This document shows positions 50,462-64,000 of a stretch of 64,000 bases of DNA, one piece after another (the first letter of the stretch is position 1; every line of letters starts with the position of its first letter). The DNA is from Candidatus Nomurabacteria bacterium. Its GTDB lineage: Bacteria > Patescibacteriota > Minisyncoccia > Phycocordibacterales > JAACPR01. A program made the translations under genes and the position numbers. The DNA lies in the NCBI GenBank assembly GCA_020632215.1, contig JACKFZ010000006.1, positions 12,574 through 76,573 of the forward strand. Direction: 5' to 3'. The notes below the pieces were generated by a model. That model saw nothing but the letters and a program-made list of their open reading frames with translations, made no database searches and was not told the DNA's origin.

Positions 50462-53400
50462 TTAGATATCGGTGTATTTTTTAAAATTTTCCGCTTGCTC
50501 AAATATTTCTTTAAACACCTCATCTTTTGGCACAGGAGGATAGCCATTTTTATCAAGCGTAAGAATTAAATCAACTTTCAATTCGGCTTTGATATTATCT
50601 CTAGCTGACCAATCTGTGTATCTGGCTTTATCGTCGACAATTTTTTTAATCTCTTGCGACAATATAATCAATTTATCTTCGGGATATTCAAATTTATATT
50701 TTTCAGCAACTGCCTTCAAAATATCGTAAAAGGCTTTTTCTTCAAAATCTATCCCTAACCCTTCAAAAGATTTTCTTTCTTCTTGTAGTTGCTTGAATAG
50801 ATCAGCAAATTTATCTGCCACATCATCCAAAACATGACTTTGAAATACGTCAAAATCTTTTCGTTCGTTATAAAGTTCAATAAGTTTTTTTAGTTTCTTT
50901 GAAAAATCAACACCTTTAATTCGGTTTGTCTTCTTAAACTCATTAATAGCTTTTGCTAAAAGTTTTTGTAATAGTTTGATTTTCGTGTTTGGCAATTTAA
51001 TTTTTTCAATTTTTGCCAAATATTCATCACTAAAAATATCTGCGTTATTTTCCGGTTTGTTTTTATCAAGTTTAAATATTTCTTCTACTCCTTCACTAAT
51101 CAATGCTTCTTGTATCATCTGACGCACTTTTTCATTCATTTGTGCGGTATCCGGCGCATCTCCCTTGGTTAGTTTGTGAATAATTGATTTAATGGCAAAA
51201 TAAAAATGAATATAGTCTCGTTCAATCTGCGAAATTTTCTCACTTGCACAACAAAGATCATAAGCAGACCGCAACTTCTTCGTTATAGACATGAAGCGAT
51301 TCTCTAAATCAGCCGTAACTTGAACAAATTCAGCTGACCGATTCAAGCAATTCAATTTTTCCAAAGGAGAACCCTCAAAAAAAGGCTTGGTATCAAATCC
51401 ATGAAATAATTTTGAAAGCAAGTCGAGTTGATCTTTCACAATCCCCACCGCTTTATCTGCATCTGCAAAATCATCGCCATGCACCTTACTATATTTTGCA
51501 AGAGCAATATTCATGTTGCTTTTTATTCCAATATAATCAACTACCAAGCCAACTTCTTTACCTTCATAAACACGATTGACGCGAGAAATTGTTTGAATTA
51601 GTGAATGTTGTTGAACAGGTTTGTCAATATAAATCGCCTCCAAAAAAGGCACATCAAAACCAGTAAGCCACATATCAACGACAATAGCGATTTTGAAATT
51701 TGATTTTGCATTTTTGAACTGGCGATCAAGCTCTTTTCTATCTTCTTTTGTCCCTAGCATGTCATACAGCGCTTTTTCATCATCCTTATTGCGAGTCATC
51801 ACCATTTTAATCTTCTCAATTGGCTTGATTTCTCGCTTTTCCTCTGTAGTGAGTTTTGCGCCTTCCTCGCATGCTTTAATTTCCCCCCATTCTGGTCTAA
51901 GTGAAATCACTTCTTTATAAAAATCGTAAGCAATCGGTCGGCTAGAGCAGACGAACATAACTTTACCTTTGACGCTTGCTCCTTCCTCAATTCGCTTTTC
52001 ATAATGTTCAACAAAATCTGTCGCTAAAAGTTTCAATCTCTTTGGATCACCCAAAATAACTTCCATCTGCGCTACAGCTTTTTTGCTTTCTTCTATTTGA
52101 TATTCATTTGCTCCTTCTTCTGCGCATTTGGCATAGTACTCTTCAATTTCCTTCAATTTAGCCTCATTTAATAGAACCTTCGCTGCTCGTCCTTCATAAA
52201 CAATTCTCACGGTAATTTCATCTTCTACCGATTCTTTCATTGTGTAGGCGTCGGCAACTTCACCAAAAACAGACAATGTGCCGTCAATCGGCGTACCGGT
52301 TACGCCAACATAAGTCGCATTTGGCAAAGAATCATGGAGGTATTTTGCAAACCCATATTTAACTTCCACACCCTTATCGGTAACCTTTAATTTTTGATCA
52401 AGATTTATCTGTGTTCGGTGTGCCTCATCGGAAATACAAATAACATTTGGCCTATCAGTCAAAAGCTCCGTATCTTCAGTAAATTTTTGAATCGTTGTAA
52501 GGTATACACCACCACCTTTGATACCTTGTAAGTGTTTTCGCAAATCAGCACGACTTTCAACGCTCAAAATCTTTTCTTCATTGATAAAGTTTTTGGCATT
52601 GGTAAATTGCTCAGACAATTGATCGTCCAAATCGGTTCTATCGGTAATGAGTACAATTGTCGGGCTAGATAATTCAACGCTCTTCATCAAGAGGCGTGAT
52701 AAATACAACATCGCAAAACTTTTACCCGATCCAGTCGCTCCAAAATATGTTCCACCTTTTCCGCTTCCGGTTGGCTTCATGTTCACCTTTATGCTTTCAT
52801 AGAGCTTTCGAGCGGCGTAATATTGCGGATAACGACAAACGATTTTTGCTTCGCTTTTTGAAGTGTCGGGGAAGTAGATAAAATTATGAATAACATCAAG
52901 TAGCCTGTTTTTGTCAAACAATCCTTTAATCAAGGTATAGAGTGAATCAATACCCTCACTTGGTTCATCAGTATTATTTACTTTTCTCCACGCGTAGAAA
53001 AAATCATAAGGTGAGAACAAAGACCCCATTTTGTTATTCACGCCATCGCTTATGACGCAAAAAGCGTTGTATTTCAGAAGTTCAGGAATATCTCGGCGAT
53101 AACGAACGGTCAATTGAGTATAGGCGTCTTTAATCGTGCAATTTTCTTTGACGGCACTTTTGAATTCAAAAACCACCAAAGGCAAGCCGTTTATATACAC
53201 GATTCCATCAGGAATTCTTTTTTCAGTTCCTTGAATTTCTAATTGATTAACAATTTTGAATATGTTATTCGAAGCAGTTTCAAAATCCAAGAGTTCAATA
53301 TAAATATCTTTTTGACTGCGATCTTCTCTTTTGAGAGTAAAGCCGTCAGCAATCAAACGAATAATATCCCTGTTGCTTTCATACAGCGCCGAGCTTGGAT

Positions 53401-53608
53401 AGAGATCGAGTTTTCGCAAAATTGAATCAATTTCATTTTGCGTTATACCAACACCCGCATATCTATTTTGAAGAAACGCACGCAAATCGTCACGCAGCAA
53501 AACATCACTCATTTCTTTGTGAATGGTTTCTCCGTGATGGTGCGGGATATCCACTTCTCCAAAAAGTTCTATAACCGCTTGTTCTAATGTTTCTTCAGTA
53601 AATTTCAT
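50462..53608 (-). CDS. hsdR: type I restriction enzyme R subunit
   Basis: Walker A GATGSGKS, DEAH box ISDEAHR, helicase motifs, length 1048 aa. Confidence 0.85.
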   Translation of the reverse strand: MKFTEETLEQAVIELFGEVDIPHHHGETIHKEMSDVLLRDDLRAFLQNRYAGVGITQNEIDSILRKLDLYPSSALYESNRDIIRLIADGFTLKREDRSQKDIYIELLDFETASNNIFKIVNQLEIQGTEKRIPDGIVYINGLPLVVFEFKSAVKENCTIKDAYTQLTVRYRRDIPELLKYNAFCVISDGVNNKMGSLFSPYDFFYAWRKVNNTDEPSEGIDSLYTLIKGLFDKNRLLDVIHNFIYFPDTSKSEAKIVCRYPQYYAARKLYESIKVNMKPTGSGKGGTYFGATGSGKSFAMLYLSRLLMKSVELSSPTIVLITDRTDLDDQLSEQFTNAKNFINEEKILSVESRADLRKHLQGIKGGGVYLTTIQKFTEDTELLTDRPNVICISDEAHRTQINLDQKLKVTDKGVEVKYGFAKYLHDSLPNATYVGVTGTPIDGTLSVFGEVADAYTMKESVEDEITVRIVYEGRAAKVLLNEAKLKEIEEYYAKCAEEGANEYQIEESKKAVAQMEVILGDPKRLKLLATDFVEHYEKRIEEGASVKGKVMFVCSSRPIAYDFYKEVISLRPEWGEIKACEEGAKLTTEEKREIKPIEKIKMVMTRNKDDEKALYDMLGTKEDRKELDRQFKNAKSNFKIAIVVDMWLTGFDVPFLEAIYIDKPVQQHSLIQTISRVNRVYEGKEVGLVVDYIGIKSNMNIALAKYSKVHGDDFADADKAVGIVKDQLDLLSKLFHGFDTKPFFEGSPLEKLNCLNRSAEFVQVTADLENRFMSITKKLRSAYDLCCASEKISQIERDYIHFYFAIKSIIHKLTKGDAPDTAQMNEKVRQMIQEALISEGVEEIFKLDKNKPENNADIFSDEYLAKIEKIKLPNTKIKLLQKLLAKAINEFKKTNRIKGVDFSKKLKKLIELYNERKDFDVFQSHVLDDVADKFADLFKQLQEERKSFEGLGIDFEEKAFYDILKAVAEKYKFEYPEDKLIILSQEIKKIVDDKARYTDWSARDNIKAELKVDLILTLDKNGYPPVPKDEVFKEIFEQAENFKKYTDI

Positions 53609-53610
53609 AA

Positions 53611-54741
53611 TTATTTAGTCGTTAAAGTATCAACCACTCCTTTCATCAAAACCGGACACAAAGGTGTAATCATATTTTTTAAATCTTCATTGAGTTTTTT
53701 TCTTGATTCCAAAACATAATGAATGGCAACAATTGATTTTTGCACTTCAATATCGGGTATTGGCAATCTTACTTCGCACATATCCTCCCAGTTAAATGTT
53801 TCTCTAGCACTACCCCAAGAATGAAAACGCGCGTATCTATCAAAATCAGAACGAGTGAACCAAAGATAAAGAAATTCAGGCAATAATTCTTCTTTTTTTG
53901 TAATCTCAAAAACGGGATAAATTTTTGAAACGATAAAATCTTCTTCTGTATTTAATGAAATTGGAATTCTTTCTCCCATTCTCGCCGTATTAGGGTTGAA
54001 TACAAATTGACCAACTTTCAAAAGTTTATAGCCAGAAAGTTCTACATCAGTCATGTTAGCTTTTGGCTTTATCAAAATTTTATGGATTGATACACCTCTT
54101 ACTTTACTAAGGGGCAAACCATAATTTTCGTATTCAGATTGCTGAATATAATCACCCAACCTCTTCAAGTCTTTTTTCTTTGCCAAATCTTCAATAAAAG
54201 TATCACAAATCAATTGCAAATCATCCAGACTGCTCTCATAACATTTCTGATTGCGAAGTAGTTCGTTATAAACCGCCACAACATTTTTTTGAACCCCGAT
54301 ATCATCTGGAATTGGTATCTCAATTTCACAAAATCGCTCCCATTCCAAACCACCCCTAACACTGCTATCACTAACATACCAAGAATATCTATCAAATTCC
54401 GGTTTTTGGAAAATCATCATTAGATATTCGGGAAGTAGCTTATTCGAATCTAAAACTTCAAAAGTAATATATGCAGGAGAAACAAGCGCAGGTTTATCCT
54501 CTGAATATAAAGATATCGGCAATCTTTCATCTCTGCCAACGTGCATAATGTTGCAAGCAAATCTATCTTTTCTAACTATTTTGTATTTTGATAAATCAAG
54601 ATCGGTTTGATTTGCCACCGACGGCATATAATTCTTGGTGATATTGATACCCAAAAGATTGCTTATCTCTAAGTTCTTGTTTCGCTCGTCTACGAGTTGA
54701 ATATAATCGCCAAGTTTTTTATAATTCAATTTCATAGCCAA
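53611..54741 (-). CDS. hsdS: type I restriction-modification specificity subunit
   Basis: Two target-recognition half-domains of similar length, separated by a conserved helical spacer. Sits between hsdM and hsdR. Confidence 0.8.
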   Translation of the reverse strand: MAMKLNYKKLGDYIQLVDERNKNLEISNLLGINITKNYMPSVANQTDLDLSKYKIVRKDRFACNIMHVGRDERLPISLYSEDKPALVSPAYITFEVLDSNKLLPEYLMMIFQKPEFDRYSWYVSDSSVRGGLEWERFCEIEIPIPDDIGVQKNVVAVYNELLRNQKCYESSLDDLQLICDTFIEDLAKKKDLKRLGDYIQQSEYENYGLPLSKVRGVSIHKILIKPKANMTDVELSGYKLLKVGQFVFNPNTARMGERIPISLNTEEDFIVSKIYPVFEITKKEELLPEFLYLWFTRSDFDRYARFHSWGSARETFNWEDMCEVRLPIPDIEVQKSIVAIHYVLESRKKLNEDLKNMITPLCPVLMKGVVDTLTTK

Positions 54742-56299
54742 GATGTTTAAATGCCTCCATTAGTTTTTCTTGCGAATCCTTTTCCTCTGCAAGAATATTG
54801 GTGAATTGTTTTTGAATCCGCTTCATTTCTTTGTCGTAGTTAATTTTGCTATCACGATCAACAAATTCAATGTATTTGCTCGGAATGAGCGACCAATTAT
54901 TTTTCTCAATTTCTTCGATGTTTGCGCTATAGCAAAACTCCGGAATATTTTTGTAGCTTTTTTCAAAACCCTCTCTCTGCCAGTTGTGATATGTAGAGAC
55001 TACCTCTTGGATATCGGCATCAGTGAGCTGAATATACTTTTTTTCGTATTCTTCACCTTTTCGGCGTAAATCCATAAACAATATCTCATCTTGTCTGTTG
55101 CGGTATTTCACCATTGCACCATTATGTTCAATGCTTCTAGCTTGCTTGTTTTTATTAAGAATCCAGAGCGTAACACTAATATCCGTGCTATAGAACATAT
55201 CTCGTGGCAAAACGATAATTGCTTCTACAAGGTGATTTTTGATAAACTGTTTTCTTATTGCAACCGTGTCAGGATCTCCAAGTGCGCCATTGGCAAGCAA
55301 AAATCCGGCTACTCCATTTGAGGAAAGCTTGGATGCCATATGTAAAATCCAGCCATAATTTGCATTACTAACCGGAGGCACATCATATCCCGCCCATCGC
55401 GGATCAGTGGTGAGTTCATTTGCACCTCGCCAATCCTTTTGATTGAATGGCGGATTTGCCATTATAAAATCTGCTTTGAGATCTTTGTGTTGATCTTTGC
55501 CAAAAGTATCAGCGGCGGTTTCTCCCAAATTTGAAGAGATGCCACGAATAGCCAAGTTCATTTTTGCCAGTTTGTATGTAGTCGGAATACTTTCTTGTCC
55601 GTAAATCGCAACTTCTTTGGTGTTTCCGTGATGCGCTTCAATAAATTTTATTGATTGCACAAACATACCGCCGGAACCACAGCAAGGATCATAGATTTTA
55701 CCTTTGTATGGCTCAATAAGTTCAGCAATCAGATTGACTATATTTTTGGGAGTATAAAATTCACCTTTACCTTTTCCTTCTGCGATCGCAAACTTTCTCA
55801 AAAAATATTCGTAAATTCTGCCGATAATATCGTGGGACTTATCTTTGAGTGTATCAATTTTGTGAATTTCATCTAATAAGGCTCCGAGTTTTGTAGTATC
55901 AAGATTTAATCGTGAATAGTAGTTATCTGGCAAAGCGCCTTTGAGTGCAGGATTCTTTTTTTCTACAGTAAATAATGCCGTATCTATTTTTATTGAAATA
56001 TCACTTTGTTTGGCGTTTTTTATCAAATAACTCCATCTTGATTCTTCGGGGAGATAAAACACGTTTTTCATCGTGTAAAAATCCACCATCTCCAGATATT
56101 TTTCTTTACCCTCGGCGATAAGTTCATTTCTTCGTTCCTCAAATTTATCACTGGCAAATTTTAAAAATATCAAGCCGAGCACAACGTGCTTGTATTCAGA
56201 AGGCTCAACAGTTCCCCGAAGTTTATTGGCAGATTCCCAAAGAGATTCTTCAATACTCTTCTGCTTCTTTTCTTTTTTAGGTTTAGTAGTTCTTGTCAT
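54719..56299 (-). CDS. hsdM: type I restriction-modification N6-adenine DNA methyltransferase subunit
   Basis: N-terminal HsdM_N (LWESANKLRG), SAM motif I DPCCGSGGMF, and motif IV FIMANPPFN. Confidence 0.85.
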   Translation of the reverse strand: MTRTTKPKKEKKQKSIEESLWESANKLRGTVEPSEYKHVVLGLIFLKFASDKFEERRNELIAEGKEKYLEMVDFYTMKNVFYLPEESRWSYLIKNAKQSDISIKIDTALFTVEKKNPALKGALPDNYYSRLNLDTTKLGALLDEIHKIDTLKDKSHDIIGRIYEYFLRKFAIAEGKGKGEFYTPKNIVNLIAELIEPYKGKIYDPCCGSGGMFVQSIKFIEAHHGNTKEVAIYGQESIPTTYKLAKMNLAIRGISSNLGETAADTFGKDQHKDLKADFIMANPPFNQKDWRGANELTTDPRWAGYDVPPVSNANYGWILHMASKLSSNGVAGFLLANGALGDPDTVAIRKQFIKNHLVEAIIVLPRDMFYSTDISVTLWILNKNKQARSIEHNGAMVKYRNRQDEILFMDLRRKGEEYEKKYIQLTDADIQEVVSTYHNWQREGFEKSYKNIPEFCYSANIEEIEKNNWSLIPSKYIEFVDRDSKINYDKEMKRIQKQFTNILAEEKDSQEKLMEAFKHLGYEIEL

Positions 56300-56301
56300 A
56301 C

Positions 56302-58068
56302 TTATATTTTATTAAATGCCTTTCTTATAACTCCCGCCATGAGTTTTCTTCTTTCTTGGAGGAATGTATCATATTCAAGCTGATAAAAATTTTCTGGAAT
56401 AGCGTGCTCTGCCAGCATTTCTTTAATTTCGCTCTCGCCGAACCTTTTTTGCACCATTGCAAAATATTCGCTTGGTTTGTCGTCGCTGATTTCGATATTA
56501 TCTTCAAATTCCAAAAATGTCAGATTGGCAATCTGGTTTATTTTTGCCTTGTCTTTGTTCTTATCAAATCCATATTTTGAAATGAGATAATTTCGTGGGA
56601 ATATGTGATGTTTTTCCAAACGCTTCTTTTTAATCTTTAAAGACGGATCATAAAGATCGCCTACAAGTTTGCGAGAAAATAAAACTGGCGAGCCGAGCTT
56701 GTTGAGCGCGGCATAAAAAGCATTTGCCTCTGGGCTTCTTGCTGATGATGTTTCCATTTGCCCGACAAGCGTAATATCCCAAAAATCATTGGTTAAATTC
56801 TCACCAATTATCTTTTCAAGTCCGCTGATAAATCCGTCGTGGCTAAACTCTTTTATTCTGTTTAGATCCTTTTCAAAGGCGGTTTCTGGTGAAGAAGAAT
56901 ATCTACCTGTCAGAGAAGACATCACGAACCAGCGCCCGATAATTCTTTGCAATTCGTGATTTTGCGTATTGAAATTTTGTTTTCCAATAAGATAAAGAAT
57001 ATAGCTATACAAAACGGCATTTTTTGACGATATAAGTTCTTCATCTTTATATCCGCCACCAATAAGAATTTTCAGAAAACTTTGCCAATTCGTATTATCA
57101 AGGATAGTCGGCAAATTTAATTTCAATTTATCAAATTGATGCGTTCGCAATTCTTCTGAAAATTCTCCTGTTTCCATATCGCGTCCGCGAATAATGGAGT
57201 AGACATCTTTCATTTTTGCTCGGTGGAATGTCAGACCAACTAAAACGCGAAGCATATCGTCCGGATCGGGCTTTATCAAATAATTGAAAGACGAAAAACG
57301 AGTTTCTTTTTCTGGAATTTTTCTTGAATCAATACAAAACTGCTCAATTTCTTTCCTGCCCTCTTCCCAATAGACGGAAAGTAAAGTCAAAATGAAATCA
57401 GCTTGCGTCAAACTCACCCCTTGACTGTTTATGCGAACAAAAATATCCGAGACAATTTCTTCCTCTAAATTCGGGGCAATTTCAAGAGCCGTGAGAGGAT
57501 ATTTATTGATGTTTATAAGCGATTGAATGTTTGAGGAAATTGTCTTTTCCTCTTCCTTTGTGATTTCTCTTTTTTCTTTAAGTGCCGAAATGAAATTGCT
57601 AATGATAGCAAAATCACCCTCGCCAGACCAAAGAGCTGAAAGGTCGGGAATATATTCGGGGTCGCGATCGGTCGCCGCGTCGCCGACTTTGAAAAGTGCG
57701 TCTATTGGGCGAAAAGCAATTTTGATAGCTTTGCTTTCATAATCAGGGGTCAAAACTTCCTGATTTTTCATAACGGCAAAAAGAGCCGTCAATCTTTGCT
57801 GTCCGTCAATTATCAAAAATCTCGGAATTTTCCTTTTCTTCTCATCAAAGCCAATATTTTTATAATCACTGCGATTGGCATTTTCCCAGAAAAGCAAATA
57901 TCCGATTGGATAACCACGATATATTGAATCAAATAAATCTCTAACTTTTGAGATTTTTTTATACCAAACGAACGGGCGTTGAATGTCTGGCAAAGCAATA
58001 TCGCCAATTTCAATATCGTCCATTAGTTTTCCAATCGTATAATCTGTTGTTTTGAATACTTGTGCCAT
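56302..58068 (-). CDS. GmrSD-like type IV restriction endonuclease (DUF262 + DUF1524)
   Basis: N-terminal DUF262 with DGQQRLTAL and C-terminal His-Me finger EKHHIFPRNY...ANLTFLEFEDN. Confidence 0.7.
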   Translation of the reverse strand: MAQVFKTTDYTIGKLMDDIEIGDIALPDIQRPFVWYKKISKVRDLFDSIYRGYPIGYLLFWENANRSDYKNIGFDEKKRKIPRFLIIDGQQRLTALFAVMKNQEVLTPDYESKAIKIAFRPIDALFKVGDAATDRDPEYIPDLSALWSGEGDFAIISNFISALKEKREITKEEEKTISSNIQSLININKYPLTALEIAPNLEEEIVSDIFVRINSQGVSLTQADFILTLLSVYWEEGRKEIEQFCIDSRKIPEKETRFSSFNYLIKPDPDDMLRVLVGLTFHRAKMKDVYSIIRGRDMETGEFSEELRTHQFDKLKLNLPTILDNTNWQSFLKILIGGGYKDEELISSKNAVLYSYILYLIGKQNFNTQNHELQRIIGRWFVMSSLTGRYSSSPETAFEKDLNRIKEFSHDGFISGLEKIIGENLTNDFWDITLVGQMETSSARSPEANAFYAALNKLGSPVLFSRKLVGDLYDPSLKIKKKRLEKHHIFPRNYLISKYGFDKNKDKAKINQIANLTFLEFEDNIEISDDKPSEYFAMVQKRFGESEIKEMLAEHAIPENFYQLEYDTFLQERRKLMAGVIRKAFNKI

Positions 58069-58072
58069 ATTT

Positions 58073-58282
58073 TTATTTCATTAAATCATCAAGCGAAACG
58101 CCAAGAGCATCCGCAATTTTTTTAACTGTTTCAATGGTGGGGTTGGGAGTAGAGCCAGCTTCAATTTTGGCAATCGTATGAAAAGCCAAATCCGCCTTTT
58201 TTGAAAGCTGATCCTGCGAAATGCCGAGCTTGTTTCGGTATTTCTTTATATTGTCTGCGATTGTGGATTTTTCCTTTGACAT
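58073..58282 (-). CDS. XRE-family helix-turn-helix transcriptional regulator
   Basis: NIKKYRNKLGISQDQLSKKADLAFHTIAKIEAG. First gene of the operon, with a 4-nt gap to the GmrSD-like gene. Confidence 0.7.
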   Translation of the reverse strand: MSKEKSTIADNIKKYRNKLGISQDQLSKKADLAFHTIAKIEAGSTPNPTIETVKKIADALGVSLDDLMK

Positions 58283-58466
58283 ATTCGTATAGTTTTACTA
58301 TTATAGTTGTATAGTATTAAAAATATCACTTATCAATAGTTAGTATATGAAATTTTTAGCATTTAGTCAAAGAAAAATTTTAGGGAGTTCCTTAGTGTTG
58401 CCCGCGAATGGGTTGGGTGGGTCAAGGGCAACATCTTCTTTGGCGGCGCATTTTACTTTGCAAAAT

Positions 58467-58659
58467 ACGAAATTCGGAAGCGAAAAAGGAAAGGTTCAAA
58501 ATCCCGCCCGCATTCCTCCCCAGACCCCTCCTGCGGGCGGGAAGAAAGCCGAGGCGGGGCAATTCCATTTCCCCAGAAAAATAGTTTGCCCCGCCGAGTC
58601 CAAATTAGTTTTCAAGGTTTTGCTCAAAAAATGTTCGAACTTCGTTCAAAAAACACCGC
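58467..58659 (+). repeat. copy 2 (direct) of GC-rich structured repeat A
   Basis: Inverted repeat of 49652..49845. The track ORF 58347..58916 runs through it. Confidence 0.8.
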
Positions 58660-58789
58660 CAATTTTCACTTTTTGTGAAATCGTAAGAAACAGCCTCGGC
58701 GCAAAGCGCCTCGGCATGGTATTTTTCCGCAATTTTGAAGGCATTTTTGAAATCCAAAACCAAAGTGCGGTCGGCAATGCGGAAGTTCG
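58656..58789 (-). repeat. repeat B: inverted duplicate of the last ~134 bp of the serine recombinase gene
   Basis: Reverse complement equals 60273..60406. Ends in the hexamer ccgcca, which is the 3' end of tRNA-Ser. Confidence 0.8.
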
Positions 58790-58903
58790 CAGAGCGAAGC
58801 TCTGGCAAAATGAAATTTTGCAAACCAATCTTTTTTCTTTCGCCTTTGGCGAAAGGTTGAGCGTATTTTTCTTTGATTGCCCAAAAACTAACTATCAAAA
58901 AAT

Positions 58904-60634
58904 ATGGACAACATAAATTTACAAACCAAAAAGATTTTTCTCTATGCCCGTAAATCCACGGACGAACCCGAAAGGCAGGTTTTGAGTATTGAGGCGCAAA
59001 TGTTTGAATTGCGAGAATATGCCAAAAAAGAGGGATTGAATATCGTCCGTGAATTTGTGGAAAGCAAAACCGCCAAAGAGCCGGGCAGAGAGATTTTTAA
59101 TGAAATGGTTGCAAGCATAGAGAAAAATGAAGCCGAAGGAATTTTAGCGTGGCACCCCGATAGATTGGCGAGAAATAGCATAGACGGCGGAAGAATAATT
59201 TATCTAGTAGATACTGGTAAAATAACCACGCTAAAATTTCCCACTTTTTGGTTTGATCCGACACCGCAGGGAAAATTTATGTTATCAATCGCTTTTGGGC
59301 AATCAAAATATTATGTGGATAATCTTTCGGAAAATATAAGGAGGGGTATTCGCCAGAAATTGCGAAATGGAATATGGCCCGCTTGGGCGCCACTCGGATA
59401 TTTGAACGACAAAAATCAGAGAAAAATTGTGGTTGATAAGGAAAAAGCAAAATATATAAAGCGGGCTTTTGAAATGTATGCAACTGGCGAATACCCCCTC
59501 TCTCAAATCCGAAAGATTATCAATTCCTTGGGCTTGGTTGGCAAGAAAGGCAAAATGCTTTCCGTCTCCAATTACCAATATATGCTCAAGAACAAAATCT
59601 ATTACGGCGTGATTGAATACAATGGCGAATTGTATGACGGAAAGCACGAACCGATTATCACAAAGAAACTTTTTGATTCCGTTCAAGAAGTGATGATGAA
59701 TAAAAGCAAACCGAAAACGCCAAAATTGAAACCTTATGTGTATAGAGGATTTTTCCGTTGCGGAGAGTGCGGTTGCTTCATCACTACCGAAACCCAAAAA
59801 GGTCACAACTATTTGCGATGTACCAAGCGGAAAAATCCTTGCCAGCAAAAATATGTCCGCGAAGAAATCATCACTTCTCAAATAAAAAAAGAAATCAAAA
59901 AAGTTTCTTTGTCTTCCGCTTGGGCAAACGCTTCAATCAATTATTTTGAAAACGAAAAAATGAAAATTGCCCAAGCGGAAAGCTCTTTCGCCCAAAAAGC
60001 GAGAAATGAGCTGGTAGAAATAGAAACGAAACTTGATCGCTTGCTTGATTTACAGTTAGACGGCAATTTGTCGCAAGCGGAATATACCGCTAAAAAACAA
60101 AAGATCATTCTCGCTAAAAAAGATTTGGAAGAAAAAATCTCGTCTTTTGGGCGAAAGAGCAATAATCGGTTCGAACTTGCCATTGCCTTTCTAAAAGACG
60201 CCAACCAAGCCGAAAAATACGCTCAACAAGAAAATCCCGAAAGGATTCGGGATTTTCTCAAAAAGATTGGTTCGAACTTCCGCATTGCCGACCGCACTTT
60301 GGTTTTGGATTTCAAAAATGCCTTCAAAATTGCGGAAAAATACCATGCCGAGGCGCTTTGCGCCGAGGCTGTTTCTTACGATTTCACAAAAAGTGAAAAT
60401 TGGCGGAGAGTTAGGGATTCGAACCCTAGAAGGGCTATAAACCCTTACCTCGTTAGCAGTGAGGCGCTTTCGACCACTCAGCCAACTCTCCAAGTAGAGC
60501 AAAATGTAACATATTTTATTCTTTTTTTCTATCTCCATTTATATGCTATATTCTTTTATGGAAAAAACGCCCATGACAACAAGAGAGACCCTTCAAGGAC
60601 TCCCGTCCTTCGAATACTTGGTGGGTCTAGTTAG
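58904..60634 (+). CDS. large serine recombinase (resolvase/invertase N-domain, recombinase domain, zinc ribbon, coiled coil)
   Basis: Catalytic YARKSTDEPERQ...SIEAQ, zinc ribbon CGECGC...C, and a long coiled coil. The frame stays open through the antisense tRNA-Ser, so the true C-terminus is uncertain. Confidence 0.7.
   Translation: MDNINLQTKKIFLYARKSTDEPERQVLSIEAQMFELREYAKKEGLNIVREFVESKTAKEPGREIFNEMVASIEKNEAEGILAWHPDRLARNSIDGGRIIYLVDTGKITTLKFPTFWFDPTPQGKFMLSIAFGQSKYYVDNLSENIRRGIRQKLRNGIWPAWAPLGYLNDKNQRKIVVDKEKAKYIKRAFEMYATGEYPLSQIRKIINSLGLVGKKGKMLSVSNYQYMLKNKIYYGVIEYNGELYDGKHEPIITKKLFDSVQEVMMNKSKPKTPKLKPYVYRGFFRCGECGCFITTETQKGHNYLRCTKRKNPCQQKYVREEIITSQIKKEIKKVSLSSAWANASINYFENEKMKIAQAESSFAQKARNELVEIETKLDRLLDLQLDGNLSQAEYTAKKQKIILAKKDLEEKISSFGRKSNNRFELAIAFLKDANQAEKYAQQENPERIRDFLKKIGSNFRIADRTLVLDFKNAFKIAEKYHAEALCAEAVSYDFTKSENWRRVRDSNPRRAINPYLVSSEALSTTQPTLQVEQNVTYFILFFYLHLYAIFFYGKNAHDNKRDPSRTPVLRILGGSS
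60273..60406 (+). repeat. repeat B' (recombinase 3' coding end)
   Basis: Inverted partner of 58656..58789. Its right boundary coincides with the 3' end of tRNA-Ser. Confidence 0.8.
60401..60490 (-). tRNA. tRNA-Ser (anticodon GCU) with encoded CCA
   Basis: Reverse complement reads ggagagt...anticodon loop cTGCTAa...a long variable arm...T-arm GGTTCGAATCC...actctcc-g-cca. Confidence 0.75.
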
Positions 60635-60989
60635 CGAAGCTGAGAATAGGATCATGCAAGCAAGTGGCCTTTTTGGTCCATACTTTCTTCACAACTTTGA
60701 TCTGGTGGAGCGAAAATCTTTCGTATCCCAATTCCCAGTTCATCGCAGACCCCAAAACGGAGATGTCATTACAATAAATTCATTTTTATTGTGTGGATCA
60801 TCCGACATGTTGGTTTCTTCCAAGATAGTATTCTTCGCGAAAGTCTTGAGGAGAAAATCCAATGGTAAGATGGAAAGAGTTTGGTTGTTCCGACAAGATT
60901 ACGAGGCTATCCCCAAGCAAGCCAGAGCATTCGATCGGAGACTTCTCTTTTCCATTAGAAAAAAAGCTTATGAACTCTCAACCCCGTGA
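60543..60989 (+). CDS. hypothetical protein
   Basis: ORF with locally higher GC. No motif recognised. Confidence 0.3.
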   Translation: MLYSFMEKTPMTTRETLQGLPSFEYLVGLVSEAENRIMQASGLFGPYFLHNFDLVERKSFVSQFPVHRRPQNGDVITINSFLLCGSSDMLVSSKIVFFAKVLRRKSNGKMERVWLFRQDYEAIPKQARAFDRRLLFSIRKKAYELSTP

Positions 60990-61028
60990 TCAGTCAAGAT
61001 AAAATCAAATCGCGGGAAATCTTTTTGT

Positions 61029-61319
61029 TTAATCTCTAAAGTGATTTGAGTCTTTAACTATGTTATACAGAGAAAGCAGTGGTGATAAATCTTTTTTCTC
61101 TTCTAACCTCTTTTTTAAATTATCAATTTTTTCCTCAGTCAGAAAACCCATACACTGACTATCAGTAATGTTTATCTCTTCTAGCAAATGAACAATCTCT
61201 TCATCAGATAATCTAGGTTTTAAATCTATTAGAATCCTTCCACTAGAAACACTCACTCTATACTTTTTCTCTTCTGCTTGTTCAAATTGTCCTCCTTTCA
61301 TAAAGTTATTTTTTGACAA
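61029..61319 (-). CDS. hypothetical small protein; downstream partner of an overlapping gene pair
   Basis: ORF. Its start overlaps the stop of the 61306..61914 ORF by 14 nt. Confidence 0.4.
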   Translation of the reverse strand: MSKNNFMKGGQFEQAEEKKYRVSVSSGRILIDLKPRLSDEEIVHLLEEINITDSQCMGFLTEEKIDNLKKRLEEKKDLSPLLSLYNIVKDSNHFRD

Positions 61320-61914
61320 ATTTAATATTATTAACTAGAAGTGTAGCATAAAATTCATTATGATCACCTTTCTCTATAAACGACCTTAATTTTTGAATCA
61401 ACTCTTTATCTATTAGATCAGATAGACCAGACTCTTTCTTTTGTGTACTTTCTAATATATTTAGAATATCTGTTTCACTTTTATCTTCACCCCCAATAAT
61501 ATAAAAATTTAGACCTTCTCTTTTAGCTTCCTTTAGTTCTTCAGGATCAACTGATGCAAGGTATATCCTTAATTTATCAACGACTCCACGCCAATATGAT
61601 AGAACTCCTGAACCTAACTTTTTTAAAAAATCTCCGTGCACTTTTTCAAATGACTCGATGTCGTCTATGAGTTCAGTAATATGGTCACACTTATTATATT
61701 TTCTAACTATACTCATATCCCCATACCTGATGTGTTTAGGCTTTATTAAAGGAGTTGTAAGATTTTTATCTACCACACCTTCTTCAATCAATTCTAGTTT
61801 TTCGTTAAATTCCCTAGCAGTATTATTTATACGTTCGGCTTGCCTGTATTCCTCTTCAGTTACTCTAACAAACTGATCGTCATCATTATACTCTGGCAAT
61901 ATACTTTCCCTCAT
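61306..61914 (-). CDS. hypothetical protein; upstream partner of an overlapping gene pair
   Basis: ORF of 202 aa with no recognisable family. Divergent from recG. Confidence 0.4.
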   Translation of the reverse strand: MRESILPEYNDDDQFVRVTEEEYRQAERINNTAREFNEKLELIEEGVVDKNLTTPLIKPKHIRYGDMSIVRKYNKCDHITELIDDIESFEKVHGDFLKKLGSGVLSYWRGVVDKLRIYLASVDPEELKEAKREGLNFYIIGGEDKSETDILNILESTQKKESGLSDLIDKELIQKLRSFIEKGDHNEFYATLLVNNIKFVKK

Positions 61915-61972
61915 ATCTCATTAATTTACCATATTTCACCTAAATTTCACCAGCTTATGATATAAATATGGC

Positions 61973-64000
61973 ATGAATTTGGATTCTAAAATATTAGATT
62001 TTCATCTATCTGAACTTCAGAAAAAGGCTTTGAAAAAGCTAAAAATCGAAAAAGTCAGGGATTTGCTTTACCATTTCCCTACTCGTTACGGTGATACTTC
62101 TCAAACCAACTTTGTAGAAAATCTAGAGTCTGGTATGCAAGCTACACTTTTTGGTAGAGTAAAAAATTTAAAAACTGGAAAAACTTTTCGTAGCAAAATG
62201 TCACAAGCCACTGGAACTTTTTATGACGACACGGGTGAGATAAAAGTAGCCTGGTTCAATCAACCTTATTTAGCCAAAATGTTAAATGAAGAAAAAATTA
62301 TTCGATTAACAGGAAAAGTGTCTGAATACAATGAGAAACTAAGAATTAACAATCCGAAGGTTGAAGAGGTTTCAGAAATTCCGATCGGTGTCGGCAATTC
62401 TCTTTTTGGTAAAGATGGAGAACAACATACGCTTTACCCTGTTTATTCAGAAAGCAAAGGTCTTACTTCCAACTGGATTTATCACAATATAAAAAAGATT
62501 TTTAAAAATAAATTTTTTGAAAAAATAGAAGATCCAATACCAATAGAAATTTTAGAAAAATATAATTTGCCAAAGTTAAAGACAGCTTTGATCTGGATTC
62601 ATAGTCCTCATAAAGAATCCGACGCTTTAGCAGCTAGAAAAAGATTTGCCTTTGAAGAAATTTTCTACATTCAATTACAAAGACAATTGGCTAGAAAAGA
62701 ACGAGGTCAAAAAAAGTCTTTCAAAATTCCAGTTGATCAAAAAGAGATAAAAAAATTTGTAGATAGATTCCCTTTCGAATTAACTGATTCTCAAAATCAT
62801 GCTATTGGTGACATTTTGAATGACTTCAAATCAGGAAAACCGATGGCTCGCCTACTTGAAGGTGATGTTGGTTCTGGAAAAACTGCAGTGGCAGCTGCTA
62901 CTGTTTATGCAGTAACAAATGCAACGCCAAATGAAAAACAAAACTTTGGTCATTTGCAAACTGCATATATGGTGCCAACAGAAATTTTGGCCAAGCAACA
63001 TTTTCAAAACTTCATTACTTTTTTTGAACACATGCACATCAGTATCGGTCTGATAACTTCCAGTGGTTGCTACAAGTTCCCATCGAAAATCAATCCGAAA
63101 GAAGCGACGAAAATTTCTAGAACTCAACTGCTTAAATGGGTAGCAAATGGTGAAATACCAATTTTGATCGGCACACATTCTCTGATTCAAAAATCAGTAA
63201 AATTTGAAAATTTAGCTTATGTCATTATTGACGAACAGCATCGCTTTGGAACATTACAAAGACAGAAGCTTGCACGAAAAGACGACTTTGAGCCACATTT
63301 ACTTTCCATGACGGCGACTCCTATTCCTAGAACCCTTGCCCTCACAATTTATGGTGACCTTGATCTAACACTACTCGATCAAATGCCCATGGGCAGAAAA
63401 CCGATTATTACAGAACTTGTTCTGCCAAATCAACGTGAAAAAATTTATGAAAAAATAAAAGAAGAAATAGCAAATGGCAGACAGATATATGTCATTTGTC
63501 CTCGCATAGAAGAGCCAGACCCCACAAAACAAACTGCTTTGAATGTTAAGTCAGTAAAAGCCGAGGCCAAAAGACTAAAAGAAAAAATATTCACAAAACA
63601 AAACATCGCCATCCTCCACTCCAAAATGAAACCGGATGAAAAAGAAAAAGTAATGAAAGATTTTGAAGATGGAAAAATAGACATATTAGTTTCCACTTCT
63701 GTAGTCGAGGTCGGAGTTAATGTACCGAATGCCACCAACATCATAATTGAAGGGGCCGAGAGATTTGGTTTATCACAATTACATCAGTTGCGAGGAAGAG
63801 TCTTACGAAGTAATCATCAAGCGTATGCTTACCTATTTTCTGATACAAAATCAGATACTTCTATTGAAAGATTGAAAGCTTTGCAGACTGCTAAAAATGG
63901 TTTCGAACTTTCAGAATTTGACTTGAAATTTAGAGGTGCAGGAGAACTTTATGGCAAAAAACAATGGGGTGTTTCTGATCTAGGTATGGAAGCTATTAAG
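61973..64000 (+). CDS. recG: ATP-dependent DNA helicase RecG (partial; continues past the window end)
   Basis: Manual translation from ATG 61973 gives MNLDSKILDFHLSELQKKALKKLKIEKVRDLLYHFPTRY. Walker A LEGDVGSGKT, IIDEQHRFG and LSMTATPIPRTLA lie downstream. Not in the ORF track because no stop falls within the window. Confidence 0.8.
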   Translation, partial: MNLDSKILDFHLSELQKKALKKLKIEKVRDLLYHFPTRYGDTSQTNFVENLESGMQATLFGRVKNLKTGKTFRSKMSQATGTFYDDTGEIKVAWFNQPYLAKMLNEEKIIRLTGKVSEYNEKLRINNPKVEEVSEIPIGVGNSLFGKDGEQHTLYPVYSESKGLTSNWIYHNIKKIFKNKFFEKIEDPIPIEILEKYNLPKLKTALIWIHSPHKESDALAARKRFAFEEIFYIQLQRQLARKERGQKKSFKIPVDQKEIKKFVDRFPFELTDSQNHAIGDILNDFKSGKPMARLLEGDVGSGKTAVAAATVYAVTNATPNEKQNFGHLQTAYMVPTEILAKQHFQNFITFFEHMHISIGLITSSGCYKFPSKINPKEATKISRTQLLKWVANGEIPILIGTHSLIQKSVKFENLAYVIIDEQHRFGTLQRQKLARKDDFEPHLLSMTATPIPRTLALTIYGDLDLTLLDQMPMGRKPIITELVLPNQREKIYEKIKEEIANGRQIYVICPRIEEPDPTKQTALNVKSVKAEAKRLKEKIFTKQNIAILHSKMKPDEKEKVMKDFEDGKIDILVSTSVVEVGVNVPNATNIIIEGAERFGLSQLHQLRGRVLRSNHQAYAYLFSDTKSDTSIERLKALQTAKNGFELSEFDLKFRGAGELYGKKQWGVSDLGMEAIK

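Follow-up and report, generated by a model that had tools for sequence, protein, structure and literature searches.

Two small adjacent genes of a Candidatus Nomurabacteria bacterium, orf202 and orf90, probably form an orphan operon that belongs to a single species of this group and sits between tRNA-Ser(GCT) and recG, in a slot whose content appears to have been replaced repeatedly. They were analysed within a 64,000-nt stretch of DNA, hereafter the window. A preliminary description of the window had listed three uncharacterised ORFs in this slot, 60543..60989 (+), 61029..61319 (-) and 61306..61914 (-), all of which were found (Table 1). Both ORFs of the minus-strand pair are present, but their described overlap of 14 nt and the product of 96 aa require an upstream TTG start at 61319, whereas orf90 starts at ATG 61301 in GenBank and in the gene calls of four independent Logan contigs. 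The 96-aa form, as well as the 148-aa form of orf138, is absent from every collection searched. A 4-nt gap separates the two genes (TAA-CTTT-ATG, the orf202 stop codon occupying 61308-61306). The corrected gene model for orf90, with an ATG start, 90 codons and no overlap, is a useful outcome of this analysis.

Table 1. Coordinates of the features in and around the tRNA-Ser(GCT)-recG slot (window positions).
Feature	Coordinates	Strand	Remarks
tRNA-Ser(GCT)	60401..60491	-	left boundary of slot
orf138	60573..60989	+	138 aa from ATG 60573; 148 aa if the start is ATG 60543
orf90	61029..61301	-	90 aa from ATG 61301; GenBank H6775_03210, MCB9806141.1, hypothetical protein
orf202	61306..61914	-	202 aa; GenBank H6775_03215, MCB9806142.1, hypothetical protein
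spacer orf202-recG	61915..61972		58 nt between divergent starts
recG	61973..64000	+	right boundary of slot; continues past the window end; translation read

The remaining layout agrees with what had been described: a tRNA-Ser, identified as tRNA-Ser(GCT), flanks the slot on one side, and the pair diverges from recG on the other. The identity of recG is backed by the same gene on contig L001, which has the Pfam domains RecG_wedge, DEAD and Helicase_C. orf138 points towards orf90 and away from the tRNA gene, and its higher GC content was borne out, with 0.42 for the 148-aa ORF as compared to 0.31 for the pair and 0.356 for the whole window.

orf202 and orf90 are genuine protein-coding genes, because their codon usage is typical of the host and their ORF lengths lie far beyond chance. 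The codon-usage log-likelihood of orf202 (0.417 bits per codon, GC3 0.22) equals the host mean, set by 23 confident genes (0.41 +/- 0.09 bits per codon), and is strongly frame-specific; orf90 scores 0.353 bits per codon with a GC3 of 0.23, and for both genes the other five frames are all negative. In 5000 shuffles of each region, a 202-codon ORF in DNA of 31% GC is matched in length about once (P ~0.0002). GenBank and four independent assemblies call both genes identically, at 202 and 90 aa. The sole variant strain has zero substitutions in either gene, and no diverged alleles exist. On contig L001 a zero-divergence patch spans the pair while the flanks are ~3.4% diverged, a pattern that could stem from the cassette having recently moved from one strain to another. 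On contig L002, frameshifts change orf90 to 79 aa and orf138 to 142 aa; they are uninformative because both fall in A7/T6 homopolymers.

As had been proposed, none of the three ORFs belongs to a recognisable family: significant matches were found for none of them in Pfam, NCBIfam, PADLOC or PHROGs, and these HMM libraries returned sub-threshold noise alone (Spc25, DUF1836, FUT8, 2TM effector). The profile searches recommended for the pair thus ended without a family match in the four libraries. A word-indexed search of 5.8 billion protein clusters with each of the three ORFs yielded self-matches alone. For orf202 alone, 1.84 billion representatives were also scanned in full with phmmer, and this too recovered nothing but orf202 itself. 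Phage and plasmid records contained no match at E <= 1 (tblastn), and among PDB sequences (phmmer) the best hit, 33 residues long, was to a designed TIM barrel (E 0.037). No paralogue of the ORFs occurs within the window, the loci of 14 relatives show no trace of any of the three, and scans of contigs from viruses and metagenomes, seeded with patterns of orf138 and orf90, gave nothing. Neither homology to housekeeping proteins nor conservation of the pair elsewhere in related genomes was seen. On this evidence, orf202 and orf90 are taken to be taxonomically restricted orphans of one Candidatus Nomurabacteria species. As such they resemble other orphan genes in genomes of the Candidate Phyla Radiation (Patescibacteria), being small hypotheticals of native codon usage with no homologue outside the species, and differ from these only by their tight pairing and their position in a variable slot beside a tRNA gene bearing defence and integrase genes.

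The orf202 product, of pI 5.1, is predicted to be a soluble acidic protein that lacks transmembrane or hydrophobic segments and has one cysteine (C76); the orf90 product is likewise acidic (pI 5.4). As no alignment could be assembled, structure prediction did not succeed: single-sequence AlphaFold2 reached pLDDT values of 45.5 (orf202) and 49.6 (orf90), the models were unusable, and Foldseek comparisons of these low-pLDDT models with the PDB gave nothing below E = 1 (best E 5.1 and 1.6). By eye, orf90 shows a succession of strand, helix and helix compatible with an RHH fold; no score supports this resemblance, and the structure model of orf90 is unreliable. No DNA-binding antitoxin Pfam domain of the HTH, RHH, AbrB or Phd type was detected in either protein at E <= 1. 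Homology searches and structure prediction from single sequences cannot reveal what the pair does; for that, experiments or the genomes of further relatives are the only route.

The tRNA gene that bounds the slot is associated with an island, as suspected. Directly at its 3' end lies a large serine recombinase of phage type, followed by an HTH gene, by GmrSD, a type IV restriction enzyme that matches the PADLOC HEC-05 models, and by a complete type I restriction-modification (R-M) system. These genes occupy 50462-60400, 3' of the tRNA, and the pair lies 5' of it, beyond orf138. A putative inverted repeat of 134 nt surrounds the recombinase gene within 58656-60406. The codon log-likelihoods of the island genes are atypical (0.17, 0.19 and 0.09 bits per codon for GmrSD, the HTH gene and the recombinase, respectively). 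No duplicated tRNA 3' end, the expected sign of an island boundary, was detected in the window. The tRNA gene itself is native, because an orthologue stands near recG in related genomes: among the 14 closest relatives (RecG 54-72% identical), nine carry tRNA-Ser(GCT) 0.7-5.3 kb upstream of recG. It was matched by blastn in nine related loci, and in one of them, L007, the match runs 27 nt past the tRNA 5' end. Comparison of this locus among relatives, advised in the preliminary description, revealed that the three ORFs are absent and that the slot is occupied by a HhH-GPD glycosylase, by a CDP-alcohol phosphatidyltransferase with an M3 peptidase, or by other unrelated ORFs. Searching 60400-62000 for remnants of these genes (glycosylase, M3 peptidase and others) returned the tRNA match alone. 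From these comparisons, the content of the tRNA-Ser(GCT)-recG slot appears to have turned over repeatedly in this bacterial group.

Several features of the pair are compatible with its expression as one unit. Both genes lie on the same strand, separated only by the 4-nt gap, with no terminator-like site between them. In the spacer shared with recG, -10-like boxes were seen by eye close to each ATG, TAAATT at 61923-61928 (-) and TATAAA at 61961-61966 (+). In most genes of the window no Shine-Dalgarno motif is present, and a TATAAT-like box lies 5-15 nt ahead of the ATG. Scanning for promoter and terminator consensus sequences yielded no excess of sites over shuffled sequence, and the promoter function of the spacer boxes is putative. 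Under the proposed scheme, the pair would be transcribed leftward from this spacer into an mRNA probably having a short leader, as is usual in this genome. Translation of orf90 would proceed by re-initiation 4 nt past the orf202 stop codon; re-initiation so soon after orf202 would therefore result in joint production of both proteins. Two small soluble acidic cytoplasmic proteins would thus be made together, most probably to work as one complex. The shared transcript, the coupled translation and the complex are predictions.

A two-gene cassette in such a place invites comparison with toxin-antitoxin (TA) and anti-phage systems, which the preliminary description had brought up. The pair could be an unseen TA or abortive-infection module, made of a toxic effector and a co-translated neutraliser, in a defence hot spot formed with the type I R-M system and GmrSD. 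We regard this as unlikely. The co-directional genes are tightly coupled across their 4-nt gap, the slot varies among relatives, and the pair stands 0.8 kb from a tRNA gene anchoring R-M, GmrSD, HTH regulator and phage-type serine integrase genes, a proximity that raises the prior for such a role. In addition, a passage of PMC12366544 reports that functional screens uncover many defences unrecognisable by sequence. Against this, the pair has no PADLOC, Pfam, NCBIfam or PHROG match. With PADLOC-DB v2, the best hit of orf202 was a 2TM effector model (E = 0.014, 12.8 bits, 49 residues), and orf202 lacks a hydrophobic segment; the 148-aa and 96-aa ORFs had no match. Native codon usage sets the pair apart from the atypical island genes, and the native tRNA gene and orf138 stand between the pair and the island.

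TA and defence families typically spread by horizontal transfer. Unlike these, the pair has no homologue in any genome, phage or plasmid searched, and the patchy horizontal distribution expected of type II TA systems is not observed, as self-matches alone were recovered. The likeness to type II TA systems consists of two small, co-directional, nearly abutting genes near a tRNA and mobile-element hot spot. The pair departs from them by the absence of a toxin or antitoxin family match (Pfam, NCBIfam, PADLOC, PHROGs and PDB sequences giving nothing significant), by the acidity of both products combined with no detected DNA-binding domain, by a first gene larger than usual (202 aa), by the lack of homologues elsewhere and by native codon usage. 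With the defence-island cargo catalogued by PADLOC, the pair shares its neighbours, type I R-M and GmrSD at the same tRNA gene. Here again it differs: none of the three ORFs matches a PADLOC model, all of them lie outside the integrase-bounded block, 5' of the native tRNA, and the composition of the pair is native, in contrast to that block. A role as a TA or defence system is thus neither supported nor excluded by this analysis, which brought no positive evidence for one, and the pair is not demonstrably such a system.

That orf202 and orf90 constitute an anti-phage or addiction module of a novel two-protein type, so far confined to one Nomurabacteria species, is quite doubtful. If it were true, the pair would exemplify phage resistance in the Candidate Phyla Radiation by systems invisible to sequence search. 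Candidate Phyla Radiation genomes are full of hypothetical orphan genes. As they stand, orf202 and orf90 matter little, being another orphan pair already deposited as 'hypothetical protein', and they would gain importance only if proven to be a defence or addiction module. Orphan cassettes beside defence clusters are a natural place to look for phage resistance of small-genome episymbionts; according to a passage of PMC6509639, bacteria of the Candidate Phyla Radiation rarely carry CRISPR-Cas.

Another reading sees in orf202 a degenerate, truncated phage radical-SAM gene that lost its iron-sulfur cysteines, the cassette being leftover phage or mobile-element cargo and no longer an enzyme. When viral and metagenome contigs were scanned with seed patterns of orf202, only radical-SAM proteins sharing the string NFYIIGGE were recovered. 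Residues 23-169 of orf202 can be aligned (35.8 bits, 31-33% identity) to proteins of 430 aa from IMG/VR viral and metagenome contigs; these proteins are members of the Radical_SAM family (PF04055). In this alignment the CxxxCxxC site is paired with NKCD, and the SAM-binding motif GGE with NFYIIGGE. orf202 and the viral paralogues on L083-L085 have in common the exact NFYIIGGE, the pattern 'I.Y.DM...NKCD' and a compatible spacing (147 residues, 31% identity). When the seed was held fixed, 3 of 3000 shuffles reached that score, and designed TIM barrels give a weak match (E 0.037) to a beta-alpha-beta stretch at residues 116-148. These matches were, however, selected from huge collections by an exact 8-residue seed, and we estimate that about 800 chance matches are expected at 35.8 bits in 2.4e11 residues; the similarity is not significant database-wide. 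The unbiased phmmer scan of the 1.84 billion representatives detected nothing of this kind, hhalign against the profile of the viral paralogues gave a probability of 19.6%, and orf202 has no Pfam Radical_SAM match at E <= 1. Moreover, orf202 is half the length of these proteins and lacks CxxxCxxC (the aligned site reads NKCDHITELID, with C76 as the single cysteine), orf90 does not align with the next part of the 430-aa proteins, and codon usage is native. The NFYIIGGE similarity was rejected as a sign of homology after pairwise BLASTP, seed-fixed shuffles and hhalign, and kept only as a lead. A decayed radical-SAM gene is accordingly very improbable; the weak similarity hints at a possible phage origin.

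orf138 is a possible gene whose coding status is less certain than that of the pair. Its product would be basic (pI 10.0), and it is called by the Logan gene caller only (138 aa). An RNA element in its place was considered and rejected, as Rfam matches the tRNA alone and folding z-scores are ordinary. A reading in which one or more of the ORFs are non-coding, orf138 in particular being a chance or decayed frame in foreign DNA beside the tRNA, is very improbable: despite the low codon log-likelihood of orf138 (-0.08 bits per codon versus 0.41 +/- 0.09 for confident genes), its GC3 of 0.44, its lack of GenBank annotation, the two of three substitutions on contig L001 that alter an amino acid in the 138-aa frame, and a similarly scoring frame in a nearby GC-rich patch (58347..58916, 189 aa) antisense to a recombinase fragment, the codon signal of the pair is strong, frame-specific and host-typical, with an ORF length at P ~0.0002, no RNA family or unusual RNA structure occurs in the region, the 148-codon length of orf138 has P ~0.0002 in 5000 shuffles of its own region, and, like that of the bona fide recombinase, its frame scores best of the six, by ~0.2 bits per codon. 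The GC3 of orf138 resembles that of the serine recombinase (0.42), and with its foreign composition orf138 was probably acquired with, or in the manner of, the integrase-bearing element across the tRNA.

The 1.48-kb slot between tRNA-Ser(GCT) and recG in the source genome, a Candidatus Nomurabacteria member of the Candidate Phyla Radiation, contains all three ORFs that the preliminary description had placed there, and orf202 is indeed divergent from recG, with a 58-nt spacer between them. The 14-nt overlap reported for the orf202-orf90 pair is obtained only with the most upstream start, TTG 61319; it disappears with the ATG used in GenBank and in four independent Logan assemblies, which leaves a 4-nt gap after the orf202 TAA. 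The third ORF is called in Logan assemblies only, in the shorter form termed orf138, and is absent from the GenBank annotation. Neither the 96-aa nor the 148-aa form was found in any collection searched. Since nearly all genes of the window lack a Shine-Dalgarno motif, such motifs are no guide to the start choice in the pair. In many window genes the ATG is preceded, at 5-15 nt, by a TATAAT-like box, and gene starts across the window suggest that mRNAs of this genome have short leaders or none.

Features of the tRNA-Ser(GCT)-recG slot and of the adjoining island, with codon scores in bits per codon (window coordinates unless a contig is named)
Feature	Location	Strand	Own frame	Other five frames	GC3	Remarks
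Defence cluster left of recombinase	50462-58282					type I R-M, GmrSD, HTH_3
Serine recombinase	58904 onward		0.094	all negative	0.42	
tRNA-Ser(GCT)	60401..60491	-				left edge of slot
Third ORF, preliminary form	60543..60989	+				148 aa
orf138	start ATG 60573	+	-0.08	about -0.3 to -0.45	0.44	138 aa
orf90 region, preliminary form	61029..61319	-				96 aa, TTG start
orf90	start ATG 61301	-	0.353	all negative	0.23	90 aa; H6775_03210 (MCB9806141.1), 'hypothetical protein'
orf202	61306..61914	-	0.417	-0.29 to -0.94	0.22	202 aa; H6775_03215 (MCB9806142.1), 'hypothetical protein'
recG	ATG 61973 onward, past window end	+				right edge of slot
Serine recombinase relative	L087 1-4365					IMG/VR UViG 3300025323_000028

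Coding status was assessed with a codon log-likelihood trained on 23 confident window genes (mean 0.41, sd 0.09 bits per codon). orf202 and orf90 are real genes of a composition native to the host, their GC3 falling in the range of host core genes (0.18-0.30); a 202-codon ORF in DNA of 31% GC was matched by about 1 in 5000 region shuffles. The own frame of orf138 is the best of six, its composition profile is like that of the serine recombinase nearby and its length is equalled by about 1 in 5000 region shuffles. Consequently, orf138 is probably a foreign-derived gene, its status being less secure than that of the pair. The tRNA is the sole Rfam family in the region, where RNA folding is ordinary.

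The absence of a recognisable family was confirmed for all three ORFs, with nothing significant in Pfam, NCBIfam, PADLOC and PHROGs. Each ORF, searched against 5.8 billion protein clusters, matched only itself; for orf202, phmmer was also run exhaustively over 1.84 billion cluster representatives and retrieved no other protein. PDB sequences gave no significant match, phage and plasmid records none at E <= 1, and the rest of the window holds no relative. The pair products are soluble and acidic (pI 5.1 for orf202, 5.4 for orf90), with one cysteine apiece and no hydrophobic segment, while that of orf138 is basic (pI 10.0). AlphaFold2 models built without alignment were unusable (mean pLDDT 45.5 for orf202 and 49.6 for orf90), and Foldseek found no PDB match to them with E < 1.

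Pattern-seeded scans of viral and metagenome contigs provided a lead, not a finding, that orf202 may be related to viral radical-SAM proteins. Its residues 23-169 align with 430-aa radical-SAM (PF04055) proteins placed in tandem paralogue arrays (31-33% identity, 35.8 bits), its NKCD facing the CxxxCxxC site and its NFYIIGGE the GGE motif. This score exceeds the plain-shuffle maximum of 27.7 bits, and with the seed held fixed only 3 of 3000 shuffles reach it. However, the matches were chosen by exact 8-mer out of very large collections, the unbiased phmmer scan retrieved nothing beyond orf202 itself, hhalign gave a probability of 19.6%, orf202 lacks the radical-SAM cysteine motif and orf90 does not continue the alignment. 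The arrays themselves (L083 4348-12140, L084 4309-8927, L085 4339-12173; viral or metagenome contigs of 11-46 kb) comprise three to five tandem paralogues of 405-707 aa having in common an N-terminal cysteine-rich CPLPF motif; two members, in L083 and L085, were confirmed as PF04055. They are an unusual amplification on what is apparently a phage genome.

Among GTDB species representatives, the 14 loci with the closest RecG (54-72% identical) were compared with the slot. tRNA-Ser(GCT) lies 0.7-5.3 kb upstream of recG in 9 of these 14 relatives, which shows that the linkage is ancestral. Between the two, loci L005 and L008 carry an HhH-GPD glycosylase (Pfam), a similar ORF, judged by ORF only, abutting recG in L014; L010 carries a CDP-alcohol phosphatidyltransferase and an M3 peptidase (Pfam-confirmed), matched in size and start by ORFs of L011-L013, L016 and L072; and L007 carries an unrelated 185-aa ORF. 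The presence/absence check proposed earlier found relatives of the three ORFs in none of these loci, and the window retains no remnant of the genes filling the relatives' slots. Slot content has turned over, and orphans occupy the slot in this genome. A different small unannotated ORF pair (products of 150 and 90 aa, neither with a Pfam match) occurs at L072 2249-3025 (RecG 60% identical), immediately next to the orthologous tRNA-Ser on its 3' side; it is a further case of an orphan pair located at this tRNA.

The identical pair was recovered in four Logan contigs, each from a different sequencing run and all stopping inside the tRNA (~60462). L001, one of these contigs, has 98.8% identity with the window (60462-64000) and patchy substitutions: 4 in 60560-60678, none in 60679-62889 (2.2 kb that takes in the pair plus the initial 900 nt of recG) and 38, mostly synonymous, in 62890-63982 (3.4%). 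The pattern points to a tract of recent recombination or to a contig that is a mosaic of strains; the pair, being substitution-free, gives no sites for measuring selection. A second contig, L002, shows two indels, both in homopolymers.

The tRNA is island-associated as had been suggested, with the recombinase, the small HTH_3 regulator gene and the GmrSD and type I R-M cluster on its 3' side. The R-M system is complete (hsdM, hsdS and an hsdR of 1048 aa), and the GmrSD type IV enzyme matches PADLOC HEC-05 models. Resolvase, Recombinase and Zn_ribbon_recom domains make up the large serine recombinase. A relative with 58% identity to it is encoded at the extreme end of a viral contig of 21.6 kb (L087), next to an Amidase_2 endolysin, and the window's recombinase is therefore a phage-type integrase. 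The pair sits on the opposite (5') side of the tRNA and differs in composition from the island genes.

The best-supported reading is that the pair forms an operon of two genes, resident and restricted to one species. It would probably be transcribed from the spacer common with recG, its genes are probably translationally coupled, and the two small acidic proteins probably act together as a complex. The toxin-antitoxin or anti-phage module of the preliminary description would suit the tight gene pairing, the variable slot and the adjoining defence cluster, but we consider it unlikely given no family match, no detected DNA-binding domain, the acidity of both products, native codon usage and no horizontal spread seen. 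The pair is an ordinary example of orphan hypothetical genes in a Candidate Phyla Radiation genome, its gene model now corrected.

The recombinase gene is flanked by the two arms of an inverted repeat of 134 nt, perfect and sharp-ended (58656-58789 and 60273-60406). The right arm coincides with the recombinase ORF's 3' end and takes in the final 6 nt of tRNA-Ser (CCGCCA); in its present orientation this ORF is stop-free up to the tRNA and runs antisense through it to 60634. The 576-aa read-through product was found in no other assembly. The left arm is inside a minus-strand ORF (58605..58898), which would contribute a normal C-terminus, ending in SENWRCFLNEVRTFFEQNLEN before the stop. The repeat may be a segment able to invert, the gene-converted remnant of another recombinase, or an artefact of assembly. 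The stretch separating the left arm from the HTH gene includes a GC-rich patch (58347-58916, up to 0.49, especially 58504-58596) without Rfam match, which contains a plus-strand ORF of 189 aa with a poor codon score (-0.12) and two strong GC-rich hairpins, at 58504-58546 and 58553-58596.
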